Assembly: GCA_965197525.1 (NCBI GenBank)
Contig: OZ240211.1
Location: 1,824,001-1,888,000, forward strand
DNA length: 64,000 nt
Reading direction: 5' to 3'
Source of the DNA: Nitrosopumilus sp.
GTDB taxonomy: Archaea; Thermoproteota; Nitrososphaeria; Nitrososphaerales; Nitrosopumilaceae
In this document: positions 1,986 to 25,542 of the stretch, in pieces
How positions within the stretch are numbered: position 1 is the stretch's first letter
How the letters are laid out: the number at the start of each line of letters is the position of its first letter
Program-made: the position numbers and the translations under genes
Notes under the pieces: model-generated
Databases searched by the model: none
What the model saw: only the letters and a program-made list of their open reading frames with translations
Told to the model about the DNA's origin: nothing

Positions 1986-2750
1986 ATGTGTTTTATATGC
2001 TTAAATCCTACATTTCTAATGGGTAACATGGGTGAAAATCTTCCAATCCGTATTCATCAAACTTTGGTGAATCTTTTGGGAATGTACACATATGATGATG
2101 AAGTGCTGATACTTGAATCTGTTGCCAACGGAATTGACGCAAAAGCTTCTGAAATAAAAATAAATTTCCATAAAGAAGAAAGTAACAATTTCATAGATAT
2201 ACACAATAATGGAGATCCCATGTCCAAATCGGATTTTGCAAATTATCATACGATTTCACTATCCAGTAAAAAAAGGACAGCCGATCGGTTTTGCTGGTGT
2301 GGGAGCAAAAATATTTTTAGGTTCACCACATGGCAAAGAGATAATTACAATTACAGGGGATGGTAAGAACTTCTTTCTTTCGAGAATGTATAGGAATAAA
2401 AGTGATGTTAAATATGAAACGAGTTTGAAAAATTTAAAAACCGACGACGGAAAACTGGTGCCAAAAAACTATAGACAGTTAAAAGGAACTACATACAAGG
2501 TTAAGTTACCAGTTCTAATTTTGAATCATTTACAAGAATACATTGTAGACATAATCCAATTTTGGTTTAATCAAGGAATACTGACAAATAAGTTATCAAT
2601 CAGCGTAGACGGTAAAAAAATAAATGCATGGGAGCCGGTAGGATAGAAGTTCAAAAGAACACTAAAACACAAATCCCATGAAATACCATGTTACTTTTAT
2701 ATATGTAAGGAACCAATTATGGAAGACCGCCGACACCTGACGTCAGATTT
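1986..2750 (+). pseudogene. GHKL (HATPase_c, MORC/Hsp90-like) ATPase pseudogene
   Basis: ORF 1986 has ESVANGIDA and HNNGDPMS (N and G1 boxes); ORF 2209 has GFAGVGAK (G2 box). Frameshift in the A7 run near 2268-2274, in-frame TAG at 2644-2646, then truncation. Confidence 0.8.
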
Positions 2751-3528: not shown

Positions 3529-4179
3529 ATGGTTGAATTAATTAATAAAATAATGATTGTGGGGATAATTTCTGCAGTAATTATTATTGGCATGATGTCT
3601 TCTACAATAAACACATCTTTGTTTGATGATTCTTTAACTTGGGCAGCACTCATAATTTCAATATCTGCCGGAGTGATCATAACCCTAATTGTAGATAAAA
3701 AATCTTCAGATTCACATAATGAAGTAGTTGGTGCACAGAATGAAATTTCTAATCTTTTAGCACGTTTAGATGAAACTGATCAAAAACATGATGAAGCATT
3801 ATCTAAATTAAATCAAAGTAGAATAAAAAATGAAGAATTAGCAAAAAATTCAGTACTTTCGTCTTTATGCTATATCGAATCTATGTTTGATAAATTAATT
3901 TCAGCTTTAAAGAATAATCCCTTAACGGGTAAAGACATGAAATTAATTGTAAATGTGCTAGATCATTTAGAATCTCCCTTAAACATAATTGAACAAGCTA
4001 TACCACAAAGTAGTATTGAATTTAAGAGACATGGAACGGAAATACAAGATATAACTATGCTTATTCGAAGATTAATTATTGCGTCAGTAGCAGTATCTGA
4101 TGAGGAAGCAAAGAGAACATTTACTTTGATAGAAAAAACTCATCCAAAATTGAAGGCATTGATTCATAAAATCTCTTAA
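3529..4179 (+). CDS. Membrane protein, two N-terminal TM helices plus coiled coil
   Basis: Hydrophobic segments at aa ~8-25 and ~37-54, followed by a heptad-rich region. Confidence 0.7.
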   Translation: MVELINKIMIVGIISAVIIIGMMSSTINTSLFDDSLTWAALIISISAGVIITLIVDKKSSDSHNEVVGAQNEISNLLARLDETDQKHDEALSKLNQSRIKNEELAKNSVLSSLCYIESMFDKLISALKNNPLTGKDMKLIVNVLDHLESPLNIIEQAIPQSSIEFKRHGTEIQDITMLIRRLIIASVAVSDEEAKRTFTLIEKTHPKLKALIHKIS

Positions 4180-4562
4180 AGATAATAGTTTATTTTCCCT
4201 TTCATGTATTGCTGCAAAGAAATAACATTTTTTACCCACACTTGTGCCCCTTGAGGATGAAAATACCGTTTTGGACGAACAAATTTCTCAGTAACTTCCA
4301 CTTCCCAGACATAAGTTGAAAAAGAATCATCCAAACCATCTAAATTGGAATTATGCAGATGAACAGTTTTTTTTAATTCATCTACATCAAACGGACCTAA
4401 ATTTTTTTTAATTTTGATCTTGCCCAACATGTTTCCTTGGCTTAAAAGGAGAATTGTATTTCCTATTTTTGATTTTGGTACGGGTTTACTTCTTAATTCC
4501 CATCGTTTATTTCCGTCTATTATAAGATCTGCAAAAGGAGATTTTACAATTAATCCGTCCAT
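4176..4562 (-). CDS. ASCH-domain protein
   Basis: GLIVKSPFADLIIDGNKRWELR (GxKxxExR), YVW and HPQGAQVWV motifs of the ASCH family. Confidence 0.85.
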   Translation of the reverse strand: MDGLIVKSPFADLIIDGNKRWELRSKPVPKSKIGNTILLLSQGNMLGKIKIKKNLGPFDVDELKKTVHLHNSNLDGLDDSFSTYVWEVEVTEKFVRPKRYFHPQGAQVWVKNVISLQQYMKGKINYYL

Positions 4563-4565
4563 ATA

Positions 4566-5816
4566 TCATCCACTTTTATAATTCTTAATTTTTCTTTCTA
4601 ACGAACTAACTCTATTTTCGATTACGTCCTTGTCTATAATTGTCAAATCATTCCTAGCTAACTGGGCTAATGTAGATTTTCCTTCATTGTTATCTAGATA
4701 TTTTTTCAATCCTACAAACATATCTAAAGAGTGCTTCATTAGTACTTGATGTCTTTTGGTTAAATTCCTATAATCTGTTTTTTCTAATGAGATAGGAGAT
4801 AAGTCAGGATGAATCAAATGTTTCCAAAATTCCAAACAATTTATTAATATTCTAACTTTTTCTTTCCTTCTTATTTTTAACTTAGTTTCTGAGGATTCCA
4901 ACACATTAAACTCATAACACTTGTTGAGATTTTCACCTTCATTAATTGCATACAACGATAAAATCCTTACAAAACATGCCATGCAGATACCACACATTTT
5001 TGAAATCCCTTGAGACGTAGAACAGGACCATGTATATTGAATTAGTTTAGGTTCTTTGCTTGCTAAAATCACTTCCGATTTAGTTAATTCACTAAATGGC
5101 ATTTCAATTTGGAATTTTTTACCTGAAATTTCTTCAAAAATCCTTGTCCATTCTGAAATCATGTACGGATCTGTCGTTCGTGTAGGAGAAACTAACATTG
5201 AAACTGGATAATTTATCATGAAAGGTCCGTTTTCTGGTATTATTACTCGTTTGATGTCATATTCTGCTGCCATACACAGTAAGTTTGTGAGAAATGTTAC
5301 GCCCCTAACATGCAACAAAGGGATGTCTACAGTACGTTCTAACCCTAAATCAGTTTCAACTTTTGCGTGGTTATGTGGTATGCAATTTTGATAAACTGTT
5401 CTTGCAACTCCTTGCATTCTGTTACTGGTTATGGTGTGATTCAACAATCCACATTTGGTTCTATTTTGTTGTAACAATGGAAAAGATGAACTGTCAAGAC
5501 CGCCTGAGTAGAGACTCACAAAATCAAATGTAGCATCGCCAGGAAAACGTGTTTGTATTCCTGTTTTTGTTCTTTGTGAAAACTTAATTTTTATGACTCT
5601 GTCAGTCATAGTTTCATAAAATAACATTATATCGTCTAATTTTACATTAAATCGTTCAGGATCTGTAACTTTGATTTCAATTTCAGTGGAAAGGTGTTGT
5701 CTTGCTTCTGCAAGATGCACTCCAATTAGCAATTGTTGAAAATCTAAATATTCATCAGAAATTTTAAAATGTGCTTGATTTTGCCCGAATGTATTTTTTG
5801 GGGAAGTGTTAGTCAT
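4566..5816 (-). CDS. QatC/Cap9-like QueC-family PP-loop ATPase (7-cyano-7-deazaguanine synthase-like)
   Basis: SLYSGGLDS PP-loop; PENG...TRTTDP; Zn motif WSC-x8-CGICMAC. 416 aa with a QatC-type N-terminal extension, unlike ~230-aa housekeeping QueC. Confidence 0.85.
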   Translation of the reverse strand: MTNTSPKNTFGQNQAHFKISDEYLDFQQLLIGVHLAEARQHLSTEIEIKVTDPERFNVKLDDIMLFYETMTDRVIKIKFSQRTKTGIQTRFPGDATFDFVSLYSGGLDSSSFPLLQQNRTKCGLLNHTITSNRMQGVARTVYQNCIPHNHAKVETDLGLERTVDIPLLHVRGVTFLTNLLCMAAEYDIKRVIIPENGPFMINYPVSMLVSPTRTTDPYMISEWTRIFEEISGKKFQIEMPFSELTKSEVILASKEPKLIQYTWSCSTSQGISKMCGICMACFVRILSLYAINEGENLNKCYEFNVLESSETKLKIRRKEKVRILINCLEFWKHLIHPDLSPISLEKTDYRNLTKRHQVLMKHSLDMFVGLKKYLDNNEGKSTLAQLARNDLTIIDKDVIENRVSSLERKIKNYKSG

Positions 5817-6122
5817 TTATATCACTTCATCTCCAATTTCGTTTTCAAGTTCTGATAAAAGAGAATCTCCAAAATCTTTATTTTGGCTAGAATTGATAAT
5901 TGTTTTTAGTTCTTCTATTGTTTTATTTTTAATCTCTCTTACTATTTTCCTAGCTGATTGCGCAGCATTGTGTTCCGCTTCTCTAAGTAACAGATCCCGT
6001 TGTTTTCTAACTTCGGGTTTTTCAATTTCTGTTAACGACGCTTCGATTTCTAATTTATAAGCTGAATAAAATGTATTTTTATATAACTTAAAAAAATATT
6101 CCTGCTGATCTATTGTCAGCAT
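5817..6122 (-). CDS. Small helical protein (possible QatB C-terminal-like half)
   Basis: Abuts the QueC-like start; start overlaps the upstream stop (TAATG); acidic and helical. Confidence 0.65.
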   Translation of the reverse strand: MLTIDQQEYFFKLYKNTFYSAYKLEIEASLTEIEKPEVRKQRDLLLREAEHNAAQSARKIVREIKNKTIEELKTIINSSQNKDFGDSLLSELENEIGDEVI

Positions 6123-6475
6123 TAGTTTTCACCTCTATCAGATAATGTGTTGTAAAGTGCTTGACGAATGGAGTCTTTTCCAGCTAATGTTAGGTTTTTC
6201 TTAATATCACTAGGTATTTTTGAAACTGCATTACCAGAAATTTTTTTGATTGATTGTTCAGTAGTTGTTTTTGGAGATCTGTACGCAGAAATACCTGCTG
6301 CCAAAATACCGGTAATATAATCAGAACCGCCACTTTCTCTTACAGCTTTAGAAACTGTATATGCTGCTTTTTTATAATCGCCTTTGCTTATGTGGCTATC
6401 AAGTTCTTTTTTGAATTTTCTAGTTCGAACTTTCGTCCCTCGTCTGGTTAATTTTCTGCTAGGTTGGGTCCCCAT
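6122..6475 (-). CDS. Basic protein starting MGTQPS (QatB-like N-terminal Gly partner)
   Basis: Internal ATG at 6475 of the 6122-6520 ORF lies ~27 nt downstream of a TATA box (leaderless start); the MGT N-terminus resembles the MGTS start of QatB. Confidence 0.6.
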   Translation of the reverse strand: MGTQPSRKLTRRGTKVRTRKFKKELDSHISKGDYKKAAYTVSKAVRESGGSDYITGILAAGISAYRSPKTTTEQSIKKISGNAVSKIPSDIKKNLTLAGKDSIRQALYNTLSDRGEN

Positions 6476-6501
6476 AACTTTAATTAAAAACATGCATAAA
6501 A

Positions 6502-6509
6502 ATATATAA
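6502..6509 (-). promoter_or_regulatory. Archaeal TATA box (TTATATAT) with upstream GAAAAC BRE-like element
   Basis: Minus strand reads gaaaacTTATATATttttatgcatgtttttaattaaagttATG. Confidence 0.55.
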
Positions 6510-6876
6510 GTTTTCAACACATCTTGGGATTGTGGAGGGCAGTATGATGAAAAACACTATTGTATCTACTTGTTATATTATAACATACAGAGATTCGGCG
6601 TTAGGCTCAATTGCATAACAGCCTCATTACAAATTCCACTTAAATATCATATTATCTATAGAATATAAAGAGGAGACAATATGGGGAAATAGATCTTGAA
6701 TAGCGAAAATGTCAAAATCACTGTCAGTACGCCATTATTCGGCCTTGAAAATTATTCACATATTGAAAGAATTTTCAAAGTTGAAGCAGAAGAAGAGCCC
6801 TCTTCCAAGTTTCGTTTTCAAGAAACAACGTGTATTGAGAACAATCTGATTGTTTTGGCAGAGCAAAATTAATTCG

Positions 6877-8043
6877 TTAAATTTCTTTCCACATCATTTT
6901 TTCATTATGAAGATCTATTGCATCAACTGGCATACTATTGTTTAGTTGATCAACAATCATAGTTCCTACTTGACTAGCTATATTTTGTTGCATTTGTTGT
7001 AATATTTGTTGAATTTGTACAGGTACACTTTGGACTAGAATGTCGGGTGGAAGTTGGATTGGAACATTGATGTTGAGGTTAAGCTGTGGCGGAGCCCGTC
7101 TAATTTTTTTCAACTGAAGTGGTCCGGAATATTCATGGCATTTGTTTACTGACTCTATACATGCAATAATTGCATTCTTCTCTGTATATTCCTCATGATC
7201 GTCGTTATCAAAATAAGCCAAAGGATTTGCAAATGAGTTAAGTTGTAAATCCTCTTCATACTGTAAGAATAAATCCCAGCATAGTTTTTCTAACTCTTTG
7301 TCCATATCCTCAACTTGTAATCCTATCTGTTTTGCTTCATGTCTTCCAATAGAATGACCGTGAATGAATGTTCGTTCAGTTAACGTTGCTATTATTTCTT
7401 GAATCTTCGTTGTAGTTAATGCAGGTTCTACTTGAGAAAGCATTTTTTTTGCAACTGCTCTAATATGGGAATGTACACGATTCACTTGACCCAGTGTAGG
7501 AGGGCTCAATGTATCTGTAAGGGATTTTGTTAATGACGCTAATGCATTTTGATCCGTAATCCCAACTTTATCCTTTATGAAAGATATGTATGATGATACA
7601 TCTTCTGTACTCATTGGTTTCATAACAGGACTTGTTCCAGGTGGTCCTTTTCCTTTTTGCTCTTCAATCATTTGTGGATCGATTGGACCCAGTTCTCCTT
7701 TCCTACTCATTACAATCTTGTCTGCACCTAATGCAGTTAAGGTGGTAGCACTGAATGCTTTATAGGGAATCAATACGTTCAAACTTTCACAATATTCTCT
7801 TAGTATGCTAATAATTGGCCATGGGGTATCCAAATTACCGCCTAGTGAGTAGAGATAGAAATCAATTTTTTTAATTTTCTCATCACTGTTCATATTTTTT
7901 AGATGTTCGTAAAGCCATCTAATGGAATCACCTGCGATTCTAGCATTTAAAATAGGTCTATCCCCTACAAAATACACTAGAACTTTCGAATCACGATGTG
8001 ATTCTATTTTCCTTATAATCTCCTTACGTTCGGTTCTTCCCAA
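6877..8043 (-). CDS. ClpP-class serine protease (SDH_sah/DUF114 family)
   Basis: LYSLGG, PYKAFSATTLTALGAD, ELGPIDPQ and HGHSI motifs; Q/P-rich C-terminal tail. Confidence 0.85.
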   Translation of the reverse strand: MGRTERKEIIRKIESHRDSKVLVYFVGDRPILNARIAGDSIRWLYEHLKNMNSDEKIKKIDFYLYSLGGNLDTPWPIISILREYCESLNVLIPYKAFSATTLTALGADKIVMSRKGELGPIDPQMIEEQKGKGPPGTSPVMKPMSTEDVSSYISFIKDKVGITDQNALASLTKSLTDTLSPPTLGQVNRVHSHIRAVAKKMLSQVEPALTTTKIQEIIATLTERTFIHGHSIGRHEAKQIGLQVEDMDKELEKLCWDLFLQYEEDLQLNSFANPLAYFDNDDHEEYTEKNAIIACIESVNKCHEYSGPLQLKKIRRAPPQLNLNINVPIQLPPDILVQSVPVQIQQILQQMQQNIASQVGTMIVDQLNNSMPVDAIDLHNEKMMWKEI

Positions 8044-11859: not shown

Positions 11860-12537
11860 ATGAATTCAAATATCAAAGTATTTCTCAGTCATTCTCACAT
11901 GGACAAAAAAATCGCTTCTGAACTAAAATCGAATTTATCAAGATATGGATTGTCTGTTTTTCTTGCCCATGAAGATATTGAGGCAGGTGCACATTGGCCA
12001 TCCAAGTTGTATGAAGAAATTCAAAATTCAAAAATATTTATCATGCTGCTTACTAAAAACTTTCATTCTTCACAATATACAGATCAGGAAACCGGTATTG
12101 CAATTGGTTGTAAGAAAACGATCATACCAATTTGTATAGATGGAACAATACCCTACGGGTTTGCACATACTAGACAAGCAATAACCTGTTCGTATCCATT
12201 TGAAGAATCTAAAATTGAGAATATTGCAAAAATTTGTAAAATAAAGCCTGTATCTAACAGTTTCTCAGACTTGGATAAACTACTTTCAGAATTAGCAAAT
12301 TCTGATTCATATGCTGAATCTATAAGGATCTCTTCAAAATTAAAACAATATGGTAATTTTTCAGAATCTCAAATCTTTCAACTTATTTCAGCACTTGACA
12401 ATCCTCAGGTGTCTTACTCGTATGTTACCAACACGATCATAAATGAGATCCTAGAGGAGTACATTGATAATGCTAGGCCTGCTTTGCGTAGTTTACTAGA
12501 ACAATATCATGATCCTTCACATCCTTCTCTCAACTAG
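11860..12537 (+). CDS. TIR-domain protein
   Basis: VFLSHSHMD, DIEAGAHW, IFIMLLTKNF and YTDQETG (conserved catalytic Glu). Confidence 0.9.
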   Translation: MNSNIKVFLSHSHMDKKIASELKSNLSRYGLSVFLAHEDIEAGAHWPSKLYEEIQNSKIFIMLLTKNFHSSQYTDQETGIAIGCKKTIIPICIDGTIPYGFAHTRQAITCSYPFEESKIENIAKICKIKPVSNSFSDLDKLLSELANSDSYAESIRISSKLKQYGNFSESQIFQLISALDNPQVSYSYVTNTIINEILEEYIDNARPALRSLLEQYHDPSHPSLN

Positions 12538-12736: not shown

Positions 12737-13531
12737 CTACACCTTCATATTATACTTACACTTCTCAATTTGTCTATAAAGATAGCTAATAAAACTGAGT
12801 ATATCTAAAGCGTCTTGTTTGTTTATTTGGTGATCGGATTGAGGTTCATGTTCAACGGGGTTTCGTATTGCTTTCATCAAGCCCATACATAAATACATTA
12901 AGCCGTCTTGTAAATTTTGTTCTGTCATAGTTGTGTTTTTATTTAATTTTAATGAGCCATTCTGATTTAGTGCACTAGACATCAATTTACTGCCGTGTTC
13001 TGTTACTTTGGATTTTTTTGAAACACATTTTTCAAATGCTTTACAACATTCATCGACTGCATCAAAATAATGCTCTGCTTTAAATTGCGGTCTAGCATTT
13101 TTTGCTACTTGACTATGAAATTGTCGCATGTTGAACAAATTGTTATTTTTAATTGTTTTATTGGAGGTTCCTTGTTTTCTAGGAATTGCTTCTACTTTGT
13201 TTTGATTATTTATATGGAGAGAACAAGATTTCAAACACTCGTTAAATTTTTTGATAATTTTTTCTTGTCTCTTTGAGTTTCCGATATGTTCTTGAGAATC
13301 ACATATACTTTCTATAAGTACAAGAATTTTATCTGATCCTGATACATGTTGGATTTTTATAAAGATGTCATGTAGCTGGCTCCGTATTTTCCAAGATGTA
13401 ACAGAATAATCATCATCTATTTCTTTGAGAATTCTATTAATTTGGGATATTTCTCTAAACTCTTTAACGATGATCTTCGCAAATGCATACAGAGTAGGTG
13501 ATTTAAATTTCGTTATGTCGCCATTTATCAT
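12737..13531 (-). CDS. TIGR02391-family (AbiJ-like) HEPN protein
   Basis: HYFDAVDECCKAFE..GSKLM..EQNLQDGL..AIRNPVEH (RxxxxH)..DALDILSFISYL. Confidence 0.85.
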   Translation of the reverse strand: MINGDITKFKSPTLYAFAKIIVKEFREISQINRILKEIDDDYSVTSWKIRSQLHDIFIKIQHVSGSDKILVLIESICDSQEHIGNSKRQEKIIKKFNECLKSCSLHINNQNKVEAIPRKQGTSNKTIKNNNLFNMRQFHSQVAKNARPQFKAEHYFDAVDECCKAFEKCVSKKSKVTEHGSKLMSSALNQNGSLKLNKNTTMTEQNLQDGLMYLCMGLMKAIRNPVEHEPQSDHQINKQDALDILSFISYLYRQIEKCKYNMKV

Positions 13532-14502: not shown

Positions 14503-15477
14503 TCACTCAGATTCAAGCGTGACTGATATAGGAAAGTGGTCAGAAAATCCATTCTCATCATAAGTTCTGTTTCTGGAAGGACGGCCAAACCTGCGCGGCT
14601 TGCCTCTGCGTGCCATCTCAGATGAATTCTCAATTCTCATCGAATCCAGTTTAACTGATAGTCCTGTCTTCCTGCTAGGCAATAGTCCTTTTGAGACCAT
14701 CATCTGGTCAAGAGCAGATCCTGTTCCTCCATAATAGTGGGTACCCAATCCCTTGGCCATCAGAGGCCACATCAGGTTGTAGAATTTGGGTTTTCTGGCT
14801 CTCAGTACTTGTCCCTTATTATTAGTGGCCAGTGCATGTTCCATTACAGAGCGGTTAAATGGCTCGTCATTAAAATCCCCCATTGCGATTACTGCTACGT
14901 CTTTTCCGTGTACCTCTACTATTCTCTCATGAAAATATGCCAAGGTTTCACCAGCTATGAGCCTGTAGGGCTCAGACTCAAATGTTCCGCCCATTCTTGC
15001 AGGCCAGTGATTCCCCACCAGCACCAGCAGCCTGCCACTCTTCTTTATCTTCAGATTCACCTGGAACAGGTCCCGTGTCGCATTTCTTTTTACAATAAAG
15101 TGCGAAAATTTTTCTTTCAACTGAAATAAATCCGCATCGTAGATGAACGCAGTATCGATCCCACGGTTATCCTTGCCATCATAATGTGCAATTTTGTAAT
15201 TTCTCTCAAGGGGGATTTTAGTAGCTAGTTTTTTCAACACTTCTCTACTCTCTACCTCGCAGACTCCCAAGATGTCAGGCCCTGCACCGTCGTTTATCTG
15301 TACTATTATTTTTGATAGCTGTGAGATCTTTTTATTCAGAACAGTACTGTTCCATCCCTTTAACTCCTTTCCAAGCATGCGCTTCAGCTTGTTCCCACGT
15401 GGCGCATTTTGAGAATCAAAAAGGTTCTCAACATTCCACCAGGATATACAATATTCTTTCACGCGTATCCTATACAC
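14503..15477 (-). CDS. Endonuclease/exonuclease/phosphatase (EEP) family protein
   Basis: WNVENLFD, GVCEVE, NHWP, GDFND, LDQ and SDHFP motifs. Confidence 0.9.
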   Translation of the reverse strand: MYRIRVKEYCISWWNVENLFDSQNAPRGNKLKRMLGKELKGWNSTVLNKKISQLSKIIVQINDGAGPDILGVCEVESREVLKKLATKIPLERNYKIAHYDGKDNRGIDTAFIYDADLFQLKEKFSHFIVKRNATRDLFQVNLKIKKSGRLLVLVGNHWPARMGGTFESEPYRLIAGETLAYFHERIVEVHGKDVAVIAMGDFNDEPFNRSVMEHALATNNKGQVLRARKPKFYNLMWPLMAKGLGTHYYGGTGSALDQMMVSKGLLPSRKTGLSVKLDSMRIENSSEMARRGKPRRFGRPSRNRTYDENGFSDHFPISVTLESE

Positions 15478-15963: not shown

Positions 15964-16710
15964 TTAGATCAACTTGATTTTTTTCAAAGCCTCTGTCAAT
16001 CCTACTAACATATCTTCCATCTTCTTATGTGAGAAAGTTAGATAAGTAGCACGCATTTGTATGTTGGAGGGAATTTCAACTTTCTCTTCTGCAATAATTA
16101 TTACGGGCTTGTTAGTTGCCTGCCCAATCTCATCTATCACGTTTTGACTTGAATAAAAAACCTCTTGTCCATTTTTATCTGACTTGATGTCCTTTGTAAG
16201 TATGGCTAGTAGTGCGTTTGATTGACTAATCAAATCACTTGCTTGACTACTGGGAGACAAGTCTGCCCTTCCTGTTTCTTTAGCAGAAAGAACGGTGAAC
16301 CCTAGAGCCTTAAACAACCTACTCACTAGATCATAGAGATTATCATTCTTCTCCTGCATAGCAAAACTGATGAATATTGTAATACCTTCTAAAGAGAATG
16401 GTGGCATTCCCTCTTTGAAGGGAACAGACGTTCTCAAGGGCCCATCATCTGCACGATATCTAAACTCACATCTAATTCCTGAATTGCATTGAATAACTAC
16501 AAGTCCATTTTGTCTCCTTAGTTTGCGAATTTTTACCAGTTCAATGAGTTTAGAGCCAAAGGGTTTTACTTTGTCACGCTTAGTTTCATAAACTATACCT
16601 CCATTAGAATCAAAAAACTTTATCGAGTATTCCTGTTCGAGACTGCTTAAATTCACCAATATCATCTCGCTGTGCCCCCACTGCATGTCATAAATTCCGG
16701 TTAAATACAC
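15964..16710 (-). CDS. Beta-rich N-terminal domain fused to a C-terminal TIR-like domain
   Basis: TIFISFA..LLAILTKD..SSQNVIDEIG..PVIIIAE..IPSNI resembles CBASS/Pycsar-type TIR effectors. Confidence 0.7.
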   Translation of the reverse strand: MYLTGIYDMQWGHSEMILVNLSSLEQEYSIKFFDSNGGIVYETKRDKVKPFGSKLIELVKIRKLRRQNGLVVIQCNSGIRCEFRYRADDGPLRTSVPFKEGMPPFSLEGITIFISFAMQEKNDNLYDLVSRLFKALGFTVLSAKETGRADLSPSSQASDLISQSNALLAILTKDIKSDKNGQEVFYSSQNVIDEIGQATNKPVIIIAEEKVEIPSNIQMRATYLTFSHKKMEDMLVGLTEALKKIKLI

Positions 16711-17649: not shown

Positions 17650-18972
17650 GTGCTAAGCAGACAAAGAAATTCAGATGGTACAAAGCATAAACCGGCAGAC
17701 GGCAAGACATCTCGTGTAAAGAGGGTAAAAAAGACTGGAAAAACAAAGAAACAGATTACCCTCAAAAAGAGTGTAGCTGTGAAACAGAAATCCGTTATGC
17801 AAGCCAGGACTGCAACAAAACCCTCTGCTACAAGGATCAAAAAAACCAAGGTGGAGCAAAAAATATTTTTTGGGTTGGACCTGCACAAAAAATCCCTTCA
17901 GGTTGCGGCTGTAGATCCAAAAGGAAATCTTTTGATGAACAAGAGGATTGAAAACGACTTTAAGATAATCGAGCAAGAGTTTTCAGCGTTTCCAAAAAAT
18001 GCAAAATATGTATTGGAGTCATCATCCGTGTGGTATGGCGTATACCAAAAACTTGTGAGGGATCTGGATCTTGACGTGGTCATGTCAAACCCCTATCTTA
18101 CGCGCCTTATAGCAAAATCCAAAAAGAAGACCGACCGGTTTGATGCGCATGCACTAGCAGACCTGCTCAGGGGAGGTTACATCCATGAATCGTATGTCTC
18201 GCCTCCAAAAACCGTCGAGGAAAAACGGGCCATACGCTTTCGTACAAGAATGGTACGGAGCAGAACCAGTATGAAGAACATGATCCACGGCATACTGCTC
18301 CAAGAATCAATCAAGATTCCAGGACCCACATTTACATCTGCATTTAACAGGGCACTGCACGGCCTGAAGAATTGGAGGATAGATGAGTATCTGCAAGGCA
18401 TCAGATCCCTCGATGAGCGCATAGGCAGTGCCAATCTTAAGATAAACGACATGGTCAAAGACAACGAATATGCACAAATTCTCATGTCAATACCTGGAGT
18501 AGGCAAGTTTACCGCACTTTCCATCGCATCAGAGATAGATGATATCAGCAGATTCCAGAACCCTGACAAGCTAGTATCATACATTGGATTGGCTCCATCA
18601 GTGAGAAACTCTGCAGGAATAACACATCATGGAAAGATAACCCATGCCGGTAACGCGACTGTGCGATGGGTTCTCACAGAGGCTGCACTTGTACATAGGA
18701 TACATGCAAAAGAGACGACTGTCTTGACAGAGTTTTACAAACGTGTTGCAAGAAAGCGAGGAACAGCCAAGGCCATCGTTGCAACGGCGGCTAAGATGTT
18801 GCGTATTATATTTTGGATGCTAAAAAAACGAATTACCTTTGCAGAATGTCAAAGACAACGTACAGAATCATGTAGAAATGCAAAGGCAAAGCATTTGAAG
18901 AATATAAAGGATAAGAAAAGTGTAAAGAGTAAGAAAAGTGTAAAGAGTGTGAAACAACTTGCAAAAAAATGA
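17650..18972 (+). CDS. IS110-family DEDD transposase/recombinase
   Basis: GLDLHK, VLESS, KTDRFDA, SIPGVG and GLAPSVRNSAG; intact frame with Lys-rich terminal extensions. Confidence 0.95.
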   Translation: MLSRQRNSDGTKHKPADGKTSRVKRVKKTGKTKKQITLKKSVAVKQKSVMQARTATKPSATRIKKTKVEQKIFFGLDLHKKSLQVAAVDPKGNLLMNKRIENDFKIIEQEFSAFPKNAKYVLESSSVWYGVYQKLVRDLDLDVVMSNPYLTRLIAKSKKKTDRFDAHALADLLRGGYIHESYVSPPKTVEEKRAIRFRTRMVRSRTSMKNMIHGILLQESIKIPGPTFTSAFNRALHGLKNWRIDEYLQGIRSLDERIGSANLKINDMVKDNEYAQILMSIPGVGKFTALSIASEIDDISRFQNPDKLVSYIGLAPSVRNSAGITHHGKITHAGNATVRWVLTEAALVHRIHAKETTVLTEFYKRVARKRGTAKAIVATAAKMLRIIFWMLKKRITFAECQRQRTESCRNAKAKHLKNIKDKKSVKSKKSVKSVKQLAKK

Positions 18973-20381: not shown

Positions 20382-22745
20382 GTGAAAATATATCTAGTTA
20401 TGGATCACATTAATGTAGCATTTCCAGAAGAAAAACGTCCCATGATGTATAAGATGATGAAGTGGTGGGGAGGGAAGCCACATAATATTTGGTCAGAGTA
20501 CATAGAACGATATTCAAAGAAAAACGATATTGTTTTGGATCCGTTTTGTGGCCGAGGAGTTGGCGTTATAGAATCTGCAAGACTTGGAAGAAAAGCTATA
20601 GGTGTGGATATGAACCCAATAGCAATTTTTCAAACCAAGATATTATCCTCAAAATTAGATATTGACACCTTCAAATTAGAATGGGACAAGATGAAGCAAA
20701 TATTGGTAGATATTGAAGAGTGTTCTGGATTGTTCCATACAAAATGTATCAAATGTAAACAGAACGCACGACTGGGTACAATGAATCGAGATAATGGAAC
20801 ACCTTATCGAATATTTTACTATTGTAAATGTACTCCAAAGAAAGCATTAAAGAAAGAACCTACATCTGAGGACATTGCGGTGGTTGAAAAATCAGACAAT
20901 ATGGAGATAAAACTTCCATATCCAAAGGACAAATTTCCAAAATCTCAGGCTTTCAAGGTAGCAATAAAGAATTTTGGTGATACGTATGACAAACTTTTCA
21001 CAAGACGCAATTTGTATGCATTGGCAGTAATTTTTGACCAAATTGAAAAAATCAAAGATAAGGACATAAAACAATTCTTTCAGTTCGCATTTATATCCAT
21101 GATTCATCTGGTTACCAAAATTCCAAGTGTACGAGAAAACTCAAACCGTGTAATGTCTGGAAGTTGGGGTCGCCCTGGTTTTCTTAAAATGAAAAAGAAC
21201 ATGGAACTGAACCCATTTATCATATTTGAGAGATCTATAGAGGGTAGGCAGGGTGTGATAAAAGGAAAAATGAACTCAAACAAACGATTGAAAGATGGTA
21301 TAAAATATGCTAAAGAAATGAATGATCTGTCATCCAAAAATAATATATTATTGCTTAATCACAATACCGCAGAGCTAACCAATCTGATTCCTGAAAATAG
21401 CGTTGATTATGTAATTACTGATCCTCCATATGGTGGGTTAATTCCATATTTTGATCTTAGTTCAGTATGGAGTATGTGGTTGAAGTTAACCGACACGTCA
21501 TTTTCAATGCCATTTGATGATGAAATTACAATCGACGATTATAAAGATAAACCGTTTGATGAATATCACAGAATGCTATCATTATGTTTTGGAGAAATCT
21601 ACAAAGTGCTCAAACCTGGAAAATATATGACTGTAACATTTCATAATAAAAAACCGAAAATATTCAACTCAATCTTAAGAGCATGTCAGGATCATGGATT
21701 TGTTCTTGAAAAAATATTATTTCAGATGAATAAAAGAGCTGGAGAGACAGGTGCTTCTAGTCCGTGGGGGACATCAGTCAGTGATTTTTATATTCGATTT
21801 TTCAAACCGAAGGAAAAAGTCCACACATTATCAGAATATCTTCCAACAAAATTTCAAATGATTGTAAAGAATGAAGCAAAAAAAATCATAGCTAATCGTG
21901 GGGAACCAACAGAAATTTCTGCTATGATACCTCACATATACACAGAGATGGGAAAATCAGGAATGCGAATAGATTTTACTGGAGATAAACAAATATCCAC
22001 AATTTTACACGGTGATAGTGACTTTGTAGAAATGCCAAATAAACAATGGTGGTTGTCTACAGATGCGTTACAAAAACACAGGCTTCAAACTCCGTTGTCC
22101 GAACGGGTTGAAATAGCAGTGTTGTCAATTTTGCAGAAAAAATACAAGGTGTCTTTTGACGAAGCCCTGCAATCTATATTTGAACAATTTCCAAACTCAA
22201 TGACGCCAAATACGGAAAGTGTAAACAATTATCTAAAACAATATGCGAAAAAAACATCTGACGGAAAATGGAAGTTGAACCCTGGTTTTGACGAGAATAC
22301 GTTATCTCGAGAACACACTAGAATGGAAGCCATTTTATGTAAACTTGGAAAGCGTTTTGGATACAAGGTGTGGTGTCCAGACCGTAACAAAGACAAAGAA
22401 ATGAATGAGATATGCGAAGAGTTTGATTTAGAAATGATTCATGCGGATAGGATTAAACAAATTGATGTATTGTGGATAAGAGATAATGAAGTAAAGTATG
22501 CATTTGAGGTAGAAAATTCAACAAGCATAACATCAGCTCTTGAAAGATGCTCACATATCACAAATATGGGTGTGAATAAAATTATAGTGATTCCAAAGGA
22601 AAGAGAAACTTTTCTTGCACGAAAGAAGAAAGAACCGATGTTTTTAGATTATTTCCAAAAAGATAACTGGAAAGTGTTATTGTATGATGATCTTGAAAAC
22701 CATGATCGTGGAACTGAACAAGCATTATTACAGCTGGCACAATAA
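20382..22745 (+). CDS. N6A/N4C DNA methyltransferase fused to a C-terminal PD-(D/E)xK-like nuclease
   Basis: VLDPFCGRG (motif I), Zn ribbon (CIKC..CKC), ITDPPY (motif IV); C-terminal IDVLW..FEVENST. Confidence 0.85.
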   Translation: MKIYLVMDHINVAFPEEKRPMMYKMMKWWGGKPHNIWSEYIERYSKKNDIVLDPFCGRGVGVIESARLGRKAIGVDMNPIAIFQTKILSSKLDIDTFKLEWDKMKQILVDIEECSGLFHTKCIKCKQNARLGTMNRDNGTPYRIFYYCKCTPKKALKKEPTSEDIAVVEKSDNMEIKLPYPKDKFPKSQAFKVAIKNFGDTYDKLFTRRNLYALAVIFDQIEKIKDKDIKQFFQFAFISMIHLVTKIPSVRENSNRVMSGSWGRPGFLKMKKNMELNPFIIFERSIEGRQGVIKGKMNSNKRLKDGIKYAKEMNDLSSKNNILLLNHNTAELTNLIPENSVDYVITDPPYGGLIPYFDLSSVWSMWLKLTDTSFSMPFDDEITIDDYKDKPFDEYHRMLSLCFGEIYKVLKPGKYMTVTFHNKKPKIFNSILRACQDHGFVLEKILFQMNKRAGETGASSPWGTSVSDFYIRFFKPKEKVHTLSEYLPTKFQMIVKNEAKKIIANRGEPTEISAMIPHIYTEMGKSGMRIDFTGDKQISTILHGDSDFVEMPNKQWWLSTDALQKHRLQTPLSERVEIAVLSILQKKYKVSFDEALQSIFEQFPNSMTPNTESVNNYLKQYAKKTSDGKWKLNPGFDENTLSREHTRMEAILCKLGKRFGYKVWCPDRNKDKEMNEICEEFDLEMIHADRIKQIDVLWIRDNEVKYAFEVENSTSITSALERCSHITNMGVNKIIVIPKERETFLARKKKEPMFLDYFQKDNWKVLLYDDLENHDRGTEQALLQLAQ

Positions 22746-23582
22746 TCAGATTTTTCTAAAATTTAAAAGATATTGGTGTACATGATTTATTTTGAAAGCA
22801 TATGGGTATCCAAAAGGGTACAAAGGTTTGCTGTCCTGAATAAGTACAATATTGCCAACAAACTCAAAGCCTATGTCCTGCATGAGTTGTATCATATCTC
22901 CATGTGCGTTGATCTCTTTCTTGTTTACTGTGAAATCGCTGATTACTATGGTACAATATTTTTTCTGCTTGAGTTTCTTATACAATTGAATCATTATTTT
23001 TTTGACTGATGTAAGATACGAGTTGTATGTTTTCTTATTTCCTACATCATTGGCGTCATCAGAATAATATTCAACTCCTTGTCTCGTCTGGCTACCGTCA
23101 TGTCTTATTCCTAATCCCTTGTTTTTCAATATGTTGTGATATGGAGGGGATGTAACGCAATAATCAATCATATCTAATTTTTTAATAACTTGTAAAGAAT
23201 CATCATTGATTATGGTGTAATCTTTTTTCATTATTTTGGCCTTGCGAAGTCTCTTTCTTGCAAGTTTACAATAATCCTTATTCAATTCAATACCTATACC
23301 AAAACGATTAGTCATACCAGCCGATAATATTGTAGTTCCACTCCCCATAAACATGTCTAGAACACGATCATTTTCCTTTGTAAATAGCTGAATTAGTCGT
23401 TTAATATCCTCCGTTAAAAATGGGGCTGGATGTTCAAAGGCATCTTTATCTAGAACGTTTTTTTTACTCGTCCAGACACTTTTTGATAACCGTAACCATT
23501 CCTTCCCTGTAAGATTATTGACTTTGTTTCTCTTATCATAGATCCCTCGCTCTCCTTTGTCTATCTTTGATATTATGGACAT
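22746..23582 (-). CDS. DNA methyltransferase (N4C/N6A type)
   Basis: HPAPF, VLDMFMGSGTT, then TSPPY (SAM-binding motif precedes the catalytic motif). Confidence 0.9.
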   Translation of the reverse strand: MSIISKIDKGERGIYDKRNKVNNLTGKEWLRLSKSVWTSKKNVLDKDAFEHPAPFLTEDIKRLIQLFTKENDRVLDMFMGSGTTILSAGMTNRFGIGIELNKDYCKLARKRLRKAKIMKKDYTIINDDSLQVIKKLDMIDYCVTSPPYHNILKNKGLGIRHDGSQTRQGVEYYSDDANDVGNKKTYNSYLTSVKKIMIQLYKKLKQKKYCTIVISDFTVNKKEINAHGDMIQLMQDIGFEFVGNIVLIQDSKPLYPFGYPYAFKINHVHQYLLNFRKI

Positions 23583-24588: not shown

Positions 24589-25542
24589 TTATTTAGAATT
24601 ATTTATCAGCAGATCAGGCTCAAATTTGATATAGTGTTCCAATCTTTCACTCACTGTCAATCTGTCATACATAAGCAAATCTCTTGACTGTTCCTGTCCT
24701 GCAAAATATTTTGCAAGATTTGGATCGTGGCGTGAGATCTTGGTAATAAAAAATGCCCTAAAACTATGTGTTGTTATCTTGTGATGTCCTGATTCATATT
24801 TCTGATCAAGTCCTGCTCTCTCTAGATACTTTGTTAGCATCAATTCGTAATGATTACATATGTTTACAGGATTTGCACCTCCTCGGAAAAAGACTCTATC
24901 ACTATCATCTATTCTTCTCAGAATAGGTATCAGCAATGGTCTCACCTCTTTGCTAAAAAAAGTCACCCTTGACTTCTTTGTTTTTGTAATGCTGGCAGGA
25001 ACATTTACCATAATTCTCTCCTGAGTGGTATCTAGGTCTTTTTTGCGCAATTGTAGTAATTCTCCTCTTCTTAGTCCACTTGATGACTGTGCCAATATCT
25101 TGATTGCATTGTTCTTGTTACTTACTGCCAATATTCTCGTCATCTCTTCTCTTGAAAGTGGGTGTCTCTCTTCCTTAATCCTGTGAGGAAAATTCAACTG
25201 CTCTACCACATCCTCTTTTGCGATCTTTATTCCATGATATCTGAGATATGCTTTAAGATGTGAAAACAGTGTAGGGATGCTATTTGCATATATTCTATTA
25301 CTATTCCAATTTATCCAGTCTTGTAGAGAATCATAGACCAGTTCCATCTCGACTTTACGATATTCTTTTATTGTATCATCTACCGTCCTGTTATACCTCT
25401 TACTGCAGAATAACTCAAAATTCCTTATAGATGACTGGGATGCCTTTTGTGTATTGATCGCTTTTGTGCGTATTTTTTCCTCAAAACTCACTCGATCTCT
25501 GGTTTTCTGTAAAAAGGTAGACATATATCTAATATCTACCAT
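24589..25542 (-). CDS. Tyrosine recombinase/integrase
   Basis: SSGLRRGEL (R), TKTKK (K), HSFR (HxxR), C-terminal YDR (Y); starts 18 bp from the right repeat. Confidence 0.92.
   Translation of the reverse strand: MVDIRYMSTFLQKTRDRVSFEEKIRTKAINTQKASQSSIRNFELFCSKRYNRTVDDTIKEYRKVEMELVYDSLQDWINWNSNRIYANSIPTLFSHLKAYLRYHGIKIAKEDVVEQLNFPHRIKEERHPLSREEMTRILAVSNKNNAIKILAQSSSGLRRGELLQLRKKDLDTTQERIMVNVPASITKTKKSRVTFFSKEVRPLLIPILRRIDDSDRVFFRGGANPVNICNHYELMLTKYLERAGLDQKYESGHHKITTHSFRAFFITKISRHDPNLAKYFAGQEQSRDLLMYDRLTVSERLEHYIKFEPDLLINNSK

Follow-up and report, generated by a model that had tools for sequence, protein, structure and literature searches.

In bacteria, the core of the anti-virus system QatABCD is a partner protein, QatB, and an enzyme of the QueC family, QatC, and structures of the pair are available from Pseudomonas aeruginosa and Escherichia coli (PDB 9y01/9y02, 9vlk/9vll and 9zee/9zef; PMC13279940, PMC13376578, PMC13639016). 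QatB begins with MGTS and its glycine at position 2 (Gly2) is essential (PMC13279940). Met1 is removed and an NDG-modified GTSKAY peptide is detectable (PMC13279940, PMC13376578, PMC13639016), and in the crystal structures the QatB tail sits in the active site of QatC (PMC13376578, PMC13639016). On the enzyme side, the essential residues of P. aeruginosa QatC include the SGGxDS motif, R233/F237, T278/T280, four zinc cysteines and a long loop contacting QatB; T278/T280, which are essential for defence, stand where QueC and Cap9 have Tyr/Asp for nucleobase binding, and the loop that touches QatB in the crystals is the one between PENG and TRTT (PMC13279940). Some phages are held off by QatBC on its own, and in the three structural papers of 2026 the reaction was not reconstituted and the way in which tagged QatB stops a virus was left unexplained (PMC13279940, PMC13376578, PMC13639016). 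The genes qatA and qatD stand beside only ~34% of the genes of the QatC cluster, and archaeal clusters were left unexamined (PMC13329287). A second described system is type IV of the cyclic oligonucleotide-based antiphage signaling systems (CBASS), where Cap9 joins a 7-deazaguanine carboxylate to its partner's Gly2 amine and the TGT-like Cap10 then binds the modified tip (bioRxiv 10.1101/2025.04.06.647259). Here we describe a five-gene module of the archaeon Nitrosopumilus sp. (assembly GCA_965197525.1, contig OZ240211.1, forward strand 1,824,001–1,888,000), which we read, with a probability of about 0.6, as a Nitrosopumilaceae variant of the QatB–QatC anti-virus core, carried as an accessory module in defence islands. 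The 64,000 nucleotides (nt) of this stretch are called the window; all coordinates are window positions, and the gene names A to E are our own labels.

A distant QatC-type enzyme

The protein of gene C (Table 1) reaches 79.1 bits (3e-22) with the NCBIfam model of QatC as compared with 21.7 bits with the QueC model TIGR00364, for which the cut-off is 150, and the PADLOC models rank the two families in the same way, with 69.9 bits (4.7e-20) for QatC and 28.1 bits for QueC. Its sole sequence matches in the PDB are the QatC chains 9vlk and 9zee. With 416 amino acids (aa) as against ~230 for QueC, it is covered from residue 45 to 322 by positions 44–347 of the 398 of the NCBIfam QatC model, and its last ~95 residues remain unaligned. 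The preliminary description, made from the DNA letters and their open reading frames (ORFs), had set this enzyme apart from housekeeping QueC, and all three comparisons bear it out. A canonical QueC (169 bits, Pfam QueC) is encoded elsewhere in the genome, about 1 kb from a queE-like gene, so that gene C is evidently a paralogue of the host queC.

The residues known to matter in QatC are retained. In an alignment of 37 homologues, matched to QatC chain 9vlk_A, the stretch S104-G-G-L-D-S109 is invariant, and so are R171/F175, the equivalents of R233/F237, the adenine-binding pair of P. aeruginosa QatC. The same alignment shows invariance of P194-E-N-G197, of P240...T245-K246 (P(x)4TK), of the zinc-site cysteines C265/C275/C278/C281 and of T212/T214 within P211-T212-R-T214-T-D-P, a stretch that aligns with sTRTTHP of QatC and places T212/T214 at T278/T280 of the P. 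aeruginosa enzyme. The loop from PENG to TRTT is kept, ~3 residues shorter. The QatC-type features first noted for this protein (SGGLDS, PENG, TRTTDP and four cysteines) are thus all in place, and only the spacing of the cysteines needs to be corrected, from C-x8 to C-x9-CxxCxxC (C265...C275). Among 5.8 billion proteins the enzyme family forms 49 clusters when grouped at 90% identity; its members are all ~415–430 aa long, and those with a named host come from Nitrosopumilus.

A conserved five-gene arrangement

Four tightly coupled ORFs had been described on the minus strand at 4176–6475, and all of them are present, with a 1-nt overlap (TAATG) between A and B, a 0-bp gap between B and C and a 3-bp gap between C and D. 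What had escaped the preliminary description is a fifth conserved gene on the opposite strand, E (3529–4179), which encodes a protein with two transmembrane (TM) helices and converges on the gene for the ASCH protein, D.

About a dozen distinct loci with homologues were retrieved (L003 and L008 are the same locus); scans of genome and metagenome contigs yielded 2 and 4 loci, respectively, and most of the context came from identity look-ups. The order found in the window, with an A-like protein of ~117 aa, a B-like protein of ~100 aa, the enzyme and ASCH, recurs in L001, L003/L008, L007, L010, L012, L013, L014 and L015, although the enzymes of these loci are only 35–58% identical to that of the window. 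A convergent two-TM gene overlaps the end of the ASCH gene in all of the same-order loci except L015, and homologues of E occupy this convergent, overlapping position in L001, L003/L008, L007, L009 (where the gene is split), L010, L011, L012, L013 and L014. The same gene order in ~10 independent loci with such divergent QatC-like proteins means that the five-gene arrangement is not due to chance, and the homologues keep both the Met-Gly protein and ASCH as neighbours, as the earlier proposal required.

Departures from the pattern are the ASCH gene of L011, disrupted by an insertion, the gene E of L009, split in two, and the decayed locus L002. The last one (5099–6728, Nitrosopumilus sp. OZ253567) has A and B fused in a 215-aa ORF and the enzyme gene spread over at least two frames, and both the ASCH and the membrane gene are absent. 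In L015, a metagenomic contig of 7999 bp in which E was not seen, there are two inverted copies of ASCH (5416–5811 and 7096–7491) with equal identity to the query, probably a fold-back artefact of the assembly.

A probable split partner with a Met-Gly tip

Gene A can be read from an ATG at 6475 or from a GTG at 6520. In the A family, as aligned from 11 homologues, no residues but M1, G2 and Q4 are invariant, giving a tip of MG[T/N/S]Q, and database representatives of the family likewise begin with MG[T/N/S][Q/H]. In 9 of the 11 loci no possible start codon lies between an in-frame stop and the Met-Gly start (ATG, GTG or TTG), and the window and L010 alone have an upstream alternative; 6 of the 11 homologues start with GTG or TTG. 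The TATA-like element ttatatattttta, the position of which would fit a leaderless or short-leader transcript, lies between the two candidate starts in the window. A/T-rich elements are found at −22 to −34 in most of the homologous loci, which is weak evidence in a genome that is AT-rich. Comparative start-codon evidence and the place of the TATA-like element together favour 6475, the start that had been assumed from the beginning.

The tip also resembles a eukaryotic N-myristoylation motif, with Gly2, Ser6 and basic residues at 7–8. This reading was set aside because the adjacent QatC-type enzyme accounts for the conserved glycine; the likeness is a reminder to treat any proposed acyl donor as tentative.

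Several loci point to A and B being two halves of one protein. L002 and L009 each have one ORF, of 215–218 aa, that aligns end to end with A and then B, and fusion is seen a third time in P0084 (199 aa). The AlphaFold2 model of the L009 fusion, built on an alignment of 22 rows, is a confident one (pLDDT 91.3, pTM 0.86): residues 1–19 form a disordered tail, with low pLDDT and no secondary structure, and nine helices follow in one globule, with the split point of A and B between helices 5 and 6. When this model was compared with 350,542 PDB chains by Foldseek, the QatB chains 9y02_A and 9y01_A ranked first and fourth, with E of only 0.1–0.5. By VIA-align the two QatB chains are matched at Z 7.5, for helical proteins a value (Z < 8) that does not prove homology on structure alone, with a root-mean-square deviation of 4.6 Å over 174–177 residues (model 17–216, chain 64–287); the next match has Z 5.0. 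Against 48,161 PDB representatives the best value for the fused model was Z 6.0, with 131 aligned residues.

The proposal of a split or minimal QatB gains from both the natural fusions and the rank of QatB as the best structural match in the PDB. The fold match, the tip of Met-Gly-Thr/Asn, the tail predicted to be disordered and a gene position directly upstream of the QatC-type enzyme make it the best reading that A and B would form a split QatB-like partner without detectable sequence homology to QatB. The natural split would then mark a domain boundary of QatB, with the tail on one half and further helices making up the other. A predicted complex of the enzyme with B and A scored 0.88 and counts neither for nor against binding of the enzyme, since a control with the enzyme swapped for an unrelated protein scored nearly alike (0.83). 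As a separate observation, a protein of 1008 aa (P0094) has eight stretches that match the profile of the B half (E 5.7e-09); it may be built of repeated helical units like those of B, or the match may be a false positive caused by a coiled coil.

The ASCH protein and the membrane protein

The assignment of D to the ASCH family, already made in the preliminary description, holds with 31.2 bits to Pfam PF04266 (cut-off 21.2), and this threshold is passed by 11/11 homologues. D is the best-conserved accessory protein of the module, with a mean column identity of 63%, and K19, E22 and R24 (K-x-x-E-x-R) are invariant across its homologues. This triplet is the catalytic triad of the TRIP4/EOLA1 clade, in which EOLA1 acts as a hydrolase of the N4-acetylcytidine (ac4C) amide, as bacterial YqfB does (bioRxiv 10.64898/2026.08.01.741249). 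The closest solved structure is the uncharacterised structural-genomics protein TTHA0113 of Thermus thermophilus (1wk2/2dp9; 1.6e-10). D shares with TTHA0113 and with YqfB/EOLA1 of the TRIP4-like clade the character of a stand-alone ASCH domain of ~125 aa with a K-x-x-E-x-R pocket; it differs from EOLA1 in that the alcoholic residue near EOLA1 position 7 is not evident, and in that its subfamily is tied to a QatC-type operon. Judged by shared contig sizes, the top ~70 of 80 ASCH clusters appear to share loci with the enzyme, whereas more distant members stand alone. One of these, in Candidatus Caldarchaeum (L023, 5001–7117), is flanked by a NifU-like gene on one side and by a gene for an HD phosphohydrolase on the other, with a deoxynucleoside/thymidylate kinase gene adjoining, a setting that hints at an ancestral ASCH in nucleotide salvage.

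Modified bases, and modified nucleotides in free form, are known ligands of ASCH/PUA-like domains, and PUA-like domains sense modified nucleotides in defence systems (PMC7641849; bioRxiv 10.64898/2026.01.15.699771). The mark made by Cap9, also detected on QatB, is an amide of a deazaguanine carboxylate and glycine, and the nucleobase-handling Cap10 binds it; by this analogy D might read the mark or remove it, a role that we hold to be doubtful. As alternatives, ASCH could regenerate the carboxylate donor from the amide ADG or could sense a modified nucleotide. A 266-nt contig from a sponge metatranscriptome matches 4236–4501 inside the ASCH gene with 2 differences, strand and transcript ends not being shown by it; this is at most a hint that the gene is expressed in a sponge-dwelling close relative, and carry-over of DNA could also explain it.

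The AlphaFold2 model of E (pLDDT 88, pTM 0.58) has two N-terminal TM helices, the second of which runs into a helix of ~96 residues, followed by a C-terminal helical bundle. A cytoplasmic place of this bundle is suggested by the lysines that follow the second helix. Fold searches with this model returned only generic four-helix bundles and designed proteins, from which no function was drawn. The family of E is small, with 31 clusters only, and at least 21 of these share the size of their longest contig with a QatC-like or ASCH cluster, an indirect sign that, as far as the database shows, E may occur only in this module. From its context we propose that E might be the output or the anchor of the system; that it is the effector we hold to be rather unlikely.

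Distribution and genomic context

In the sample of class Nitrososphaeria a match was found in 5/401 genomes: three hold an intact module of the window type (the window's own included), one a decayed copy and one a module of a different type. Run over viral contigs, the enzyme profile met no relative, which is neutral to the question. A different archaeal QatC-like gene, of 455 aa with TVTTHP and 74 bits to QatC, is found in L022 (4684–8003; genome G067, of another Nitrososphaeria family). Here, too, the partner takes up two genes, small ORFs of 160 and 96 aa that precede the enzyme, and the first of them starts with MVDK and has no Gly2; a convergent gene of 91 aa and an AAA/STAND-like ATPase of 316 aa follow the QatC-like gene.

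The flanks vary from locus to locus and include type I and type II restriction-modification, HicAB, HEPN, SIR2, NERD, integrases and transposases. The window's copy sits in an island of low GC (~0.30–0.35) at 1–25600, which ends at a tyrosine integrase (24589–25542) beside the nuo genes (27225 onward) and contains further genes listed in Table 1. With varied defence and mobile flanks, a patchy presence and an island setting, the module has the signature of an accessory, horizontally moving, defence-type element. Neither a KAP ATPase (QatA) nor TatD (QatD), a CD-NTase or a TGT occurs among the neighbours in the window or in any of the ten fetched loci, in line with what had first been reported for this stretch. 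The only TGT of the genome is 260 kb away from the module.

Table 1. Genes of the module and other features of the window.
Feature	Position	Strand	Description
Gene A	6122–6475	−	117 aa from ATG (132 aa from GTG 6520); basic; starts MGTQPSRK; ~19-residue disordered tail predicted, then helices
Gene B	5817–6122	−	101 aa, predicted all-helical; upstream of the enzyme in all loci
Gene C	4566–5816	−	416-aa QatC-type PP-loop (QueC-family) enzyme
Gene D	4176–4562	−	128-aa stand-alone ASCH (PUA-like) protein; K19-x-x-E22-x-R24 invariant
Gene E	3529–4179	+	216 aa, two N-terminal TM helices predicted; convergent; overlaps the ASCH stop by 4 nt
TATA-like element ttatatattttta	6509–6497	−	~28 nt upstream of ATG 6475, downstream of GTG 6520; direct sequence reading
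SDH-type ClpP-like serine protease	6877–8043	−	388 aa; Pfam PF01972, 4e-15; immediate upstream neighbour; not conserved beside the module elsewhere
Two overlapping ORFs in different frames	1986–2646	+	126 and 145 aa; first with GHKL HATPase_c_3, 1.7e-08; looks like a frameshifted ATPase gene
TIR proteins	11860–12537 and 15964–16710		Island
Hypoth_Ymh/TIGR02391-type protein	12737–13531		Island
EEP nuclease	14503–15477		Island
IS110 transposase	17650–18972		Island
Two N6/N4 DNA methylase genes	20382–22745, 22746–23582		Island

Comparison with known systems

Among described systems the module comes closest to the QatBC part of QatABCD. Shared features are SGGxDS, Tyr/Asp replaced by T-x-T, a zinc site of four cysteines, the long loop at the active site, an enzyme with probable N- and C-terminal extensions, and a partner encoded directly upstream that is predicted to be all-helical with a disordered tail beginning Met-Gly-Thr/Asn. 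Very probably, then, the module derives from something of the QatBC kind. Unlike QatABCD, it is found in an archaeal host and has no QatA (KAP NTPase) or QatD (TatD), with a conserved ASCH and a convergent two-TM protein instead. With type IV CBASS it has in common a QueC-like enzyme and a partner with a flexible Gly2 N-terminus, and ASCH could take the reader's role of Cap10; but the CD-NTase with its MGGS tip, the TGT-like Cap10 and Cap11 are all missing, and Cap9 is a minimal enzyme (~185 aa) that keeps Tyr/Asp, whereas gene C has Thr/Thr and the probable extensions. Canonical QueC (TIGR00364; Bacillus subtilis 3BL5) shares the PP-loop fold, SGGxDS and the zinc cysteine cluster, in contrast to which gene C lacks YxQxHxxE, VPxRN and YPDC, is ~190 residues longer, and is accessory and not universal.

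A number of results weigh against the reading of the module as a QatB–QatC variant. The enzyme falls far below the NCBIfam NF041925 equivalog cut-off for QatC (79.1 vs 280 bits), has TRTTDP in place of TRTTHP, and has a divergent N-terminal domain from which the bacterial QatC motifs listed in PMC13329287 are absent; because of this score and this domain, gene C is by its sequence a distant QatC-type enzyme and not an orthologue or equivalog. The partner, which is split in most loci, has no sequence link to QatB in Pfam or by phmmer against the PDB, and A, B and the fused form have no family at E ≤ 0.1 in PADLOC/NCBIfam, libraries that were not confirmed to hold a QatB model. A profile search of 1.84 billion representatives returned only short, archaeal-type relatives of A/B, none of the size of bacterial QatB. 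The structural match to QatB stays under the level of Z 8 for calling helical homology, and the disordered tail has ~19 residues as against the 30–90 reported for bacterial QatB. Relatives of the module's ASCH also occur alone in housekeeping-like contexts. Even in bacteria, the group attached by QatC is debated: its T-x-T pocket may bind something other than 7-carboxy-7-deazaguanine (CDG), and there was no reconstitution in vitro (PMC13279940, PMC13639016).

The module is best classed, from its gene content and motifs, as QatBC-like. It fails membership in QatABCD because it has no QatA or QatD, no QatB detectable by sequence and an enzyme below the equivalog cut-off, and it is evidently neither type IV CBASS, for want of a CD-NTase and Cap10 and with its Thr/Thr active site, nor housekeeping QueC. 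A literature search found no paper naming both ASCH and QatC, and PF04266 is unmentioned in the supplement of PMC13329287.

Alternative explanations

Other explanations of the module can be put beside a QatBC-like antiviral role. One of them, suggested by public annotation, in which the homologues are called '7-cyano-7-deazaguanine synthase', is a second housekeeping QueC for archaeosine, with small flanking ORFs that are unrelated or spurious and adjacent by chance. We rejected it as extremely improbable: the TIGR00364 score is 21.7 bits where 150 is the cut-off, Tyr/Asp of QueC is replaced by Thr/Thr, a canonical QueC is encoded elsewhere, the enzyme occurs in only ~1% of the genomes of the class, and the small ORFs recur in the same order, are conserved and are modelled confidently.

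Tagging of a protein might also serve a mobile element and not defence, for example as an addiction or toxin–antitoxin-like device in which a two-TM toxin is checked by modified A/B, or as a regulator of element maintenance. This would suit the integrase-bounded or transposon-rich regions in which the module is found, the separate, convergent transcription of the membrane protein and the decayed copies (L002, and L011 with its disrupted ASCH). However, the closest relatives, QatBC, are experimentally antiviral (PMC13279940), the neighbours are mostly defence genes and not one type of element, and abortive infection and addiction modules are not mutually exclusive; we regard a role restricted to the element as improbable. 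A substrate other than a protein is the remaining candidate: the enzyme would act on a 7-deazaguanine derivative, either free or as a base of a nucleic acid, ASCH would bind or process the product, and A/B would be a scaffold or regulator. The chemistry of the QueC family is ancestrally one of small molecules, activity of QatC on CDG was not seen in vitro, ASCH/PUA-like domains are binders of modified bases and free modified nucleotides (PMC7641849; bioRxiv 10.64898/2026.01.15.699771), and in Caldarchaeum distant ASCH relatives have an HD hydrolase and a deoxynucleoside kinase as neighbours. Yet nothing in A is invariant but its Met-Gly-x-Gln tip, which is what an acceptor would be expected to show; Gly2 of QatB is essential and its tail lies in the QatC active site in crystals (PMC13376578, PMC13639016); and no transglycosylase (TGT/DpdA) belongs to the module in the fetched loci. 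We consider a small-molecule or base substrate to be distinctly improbable.

Proposed mechanism and significance

Under the preferred reading, a QatBC-like module with an antiviral role, A and B would form a split QatB-like helical protein, and removal of the methionine would leave a short flexible tail ending in Gly2. The QatC-type enzyme most likely binds the A/B pair. It would adenylate a carboxylate with ATP and then form an amide bond with the Gly2 amine of A, and A/B is likely to be its protein substrate. The carboxylate could, by analogy to the known systems, be CDG, for which the host has queD and arcTGT besides the queC and queE-like genes; with queC, queE-like and queD present, it can in principle supply this compound. 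Given the T-x-T pocket, and given that bacterial QatC could not be reconstituted in vitro, the identity of the donor is put forward tentatively. In the place of the QatA ATPase and the QatD nuclease there would be ASCH and a dedicated two-TM protein: the former, with an intact K-E-R hydrolase-type pocket, might read the base-amide mark, remove it hydrolytically or sense a modified nucleotide, and the latter might be the membrane output or anchor. The module as a whole is likely to be antiviral.

A more specific version is that ASCH is a dedicated reader or eraser of the nucleobase-amide mark that the QatC-type enzyme writes on Gly2 of the split QatB, and that the balance between writing and reading or erasing gates a private two-TM effector. 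We judge this quite unlikely as a whole; if true, protein deazaguanylation would gain its first write/read-erase cycle and archaea their first described Qat-type immune module, with a natural handle on what QatBC does.

The Qat system is widespread and its core of QatB and QatC is enough for defence. The archaeal version would swap the ATPase and the nuclease for two small, tractable proteins, which suggests concrete downstream roles, namely a reader, an eraser and a membrane output. It would also extend QueC-based protein tagging to the ammonia-oxidising archaea, in which antiviral systems have hardly been explored and whose members make the presumed precursor for their own archaeosine.

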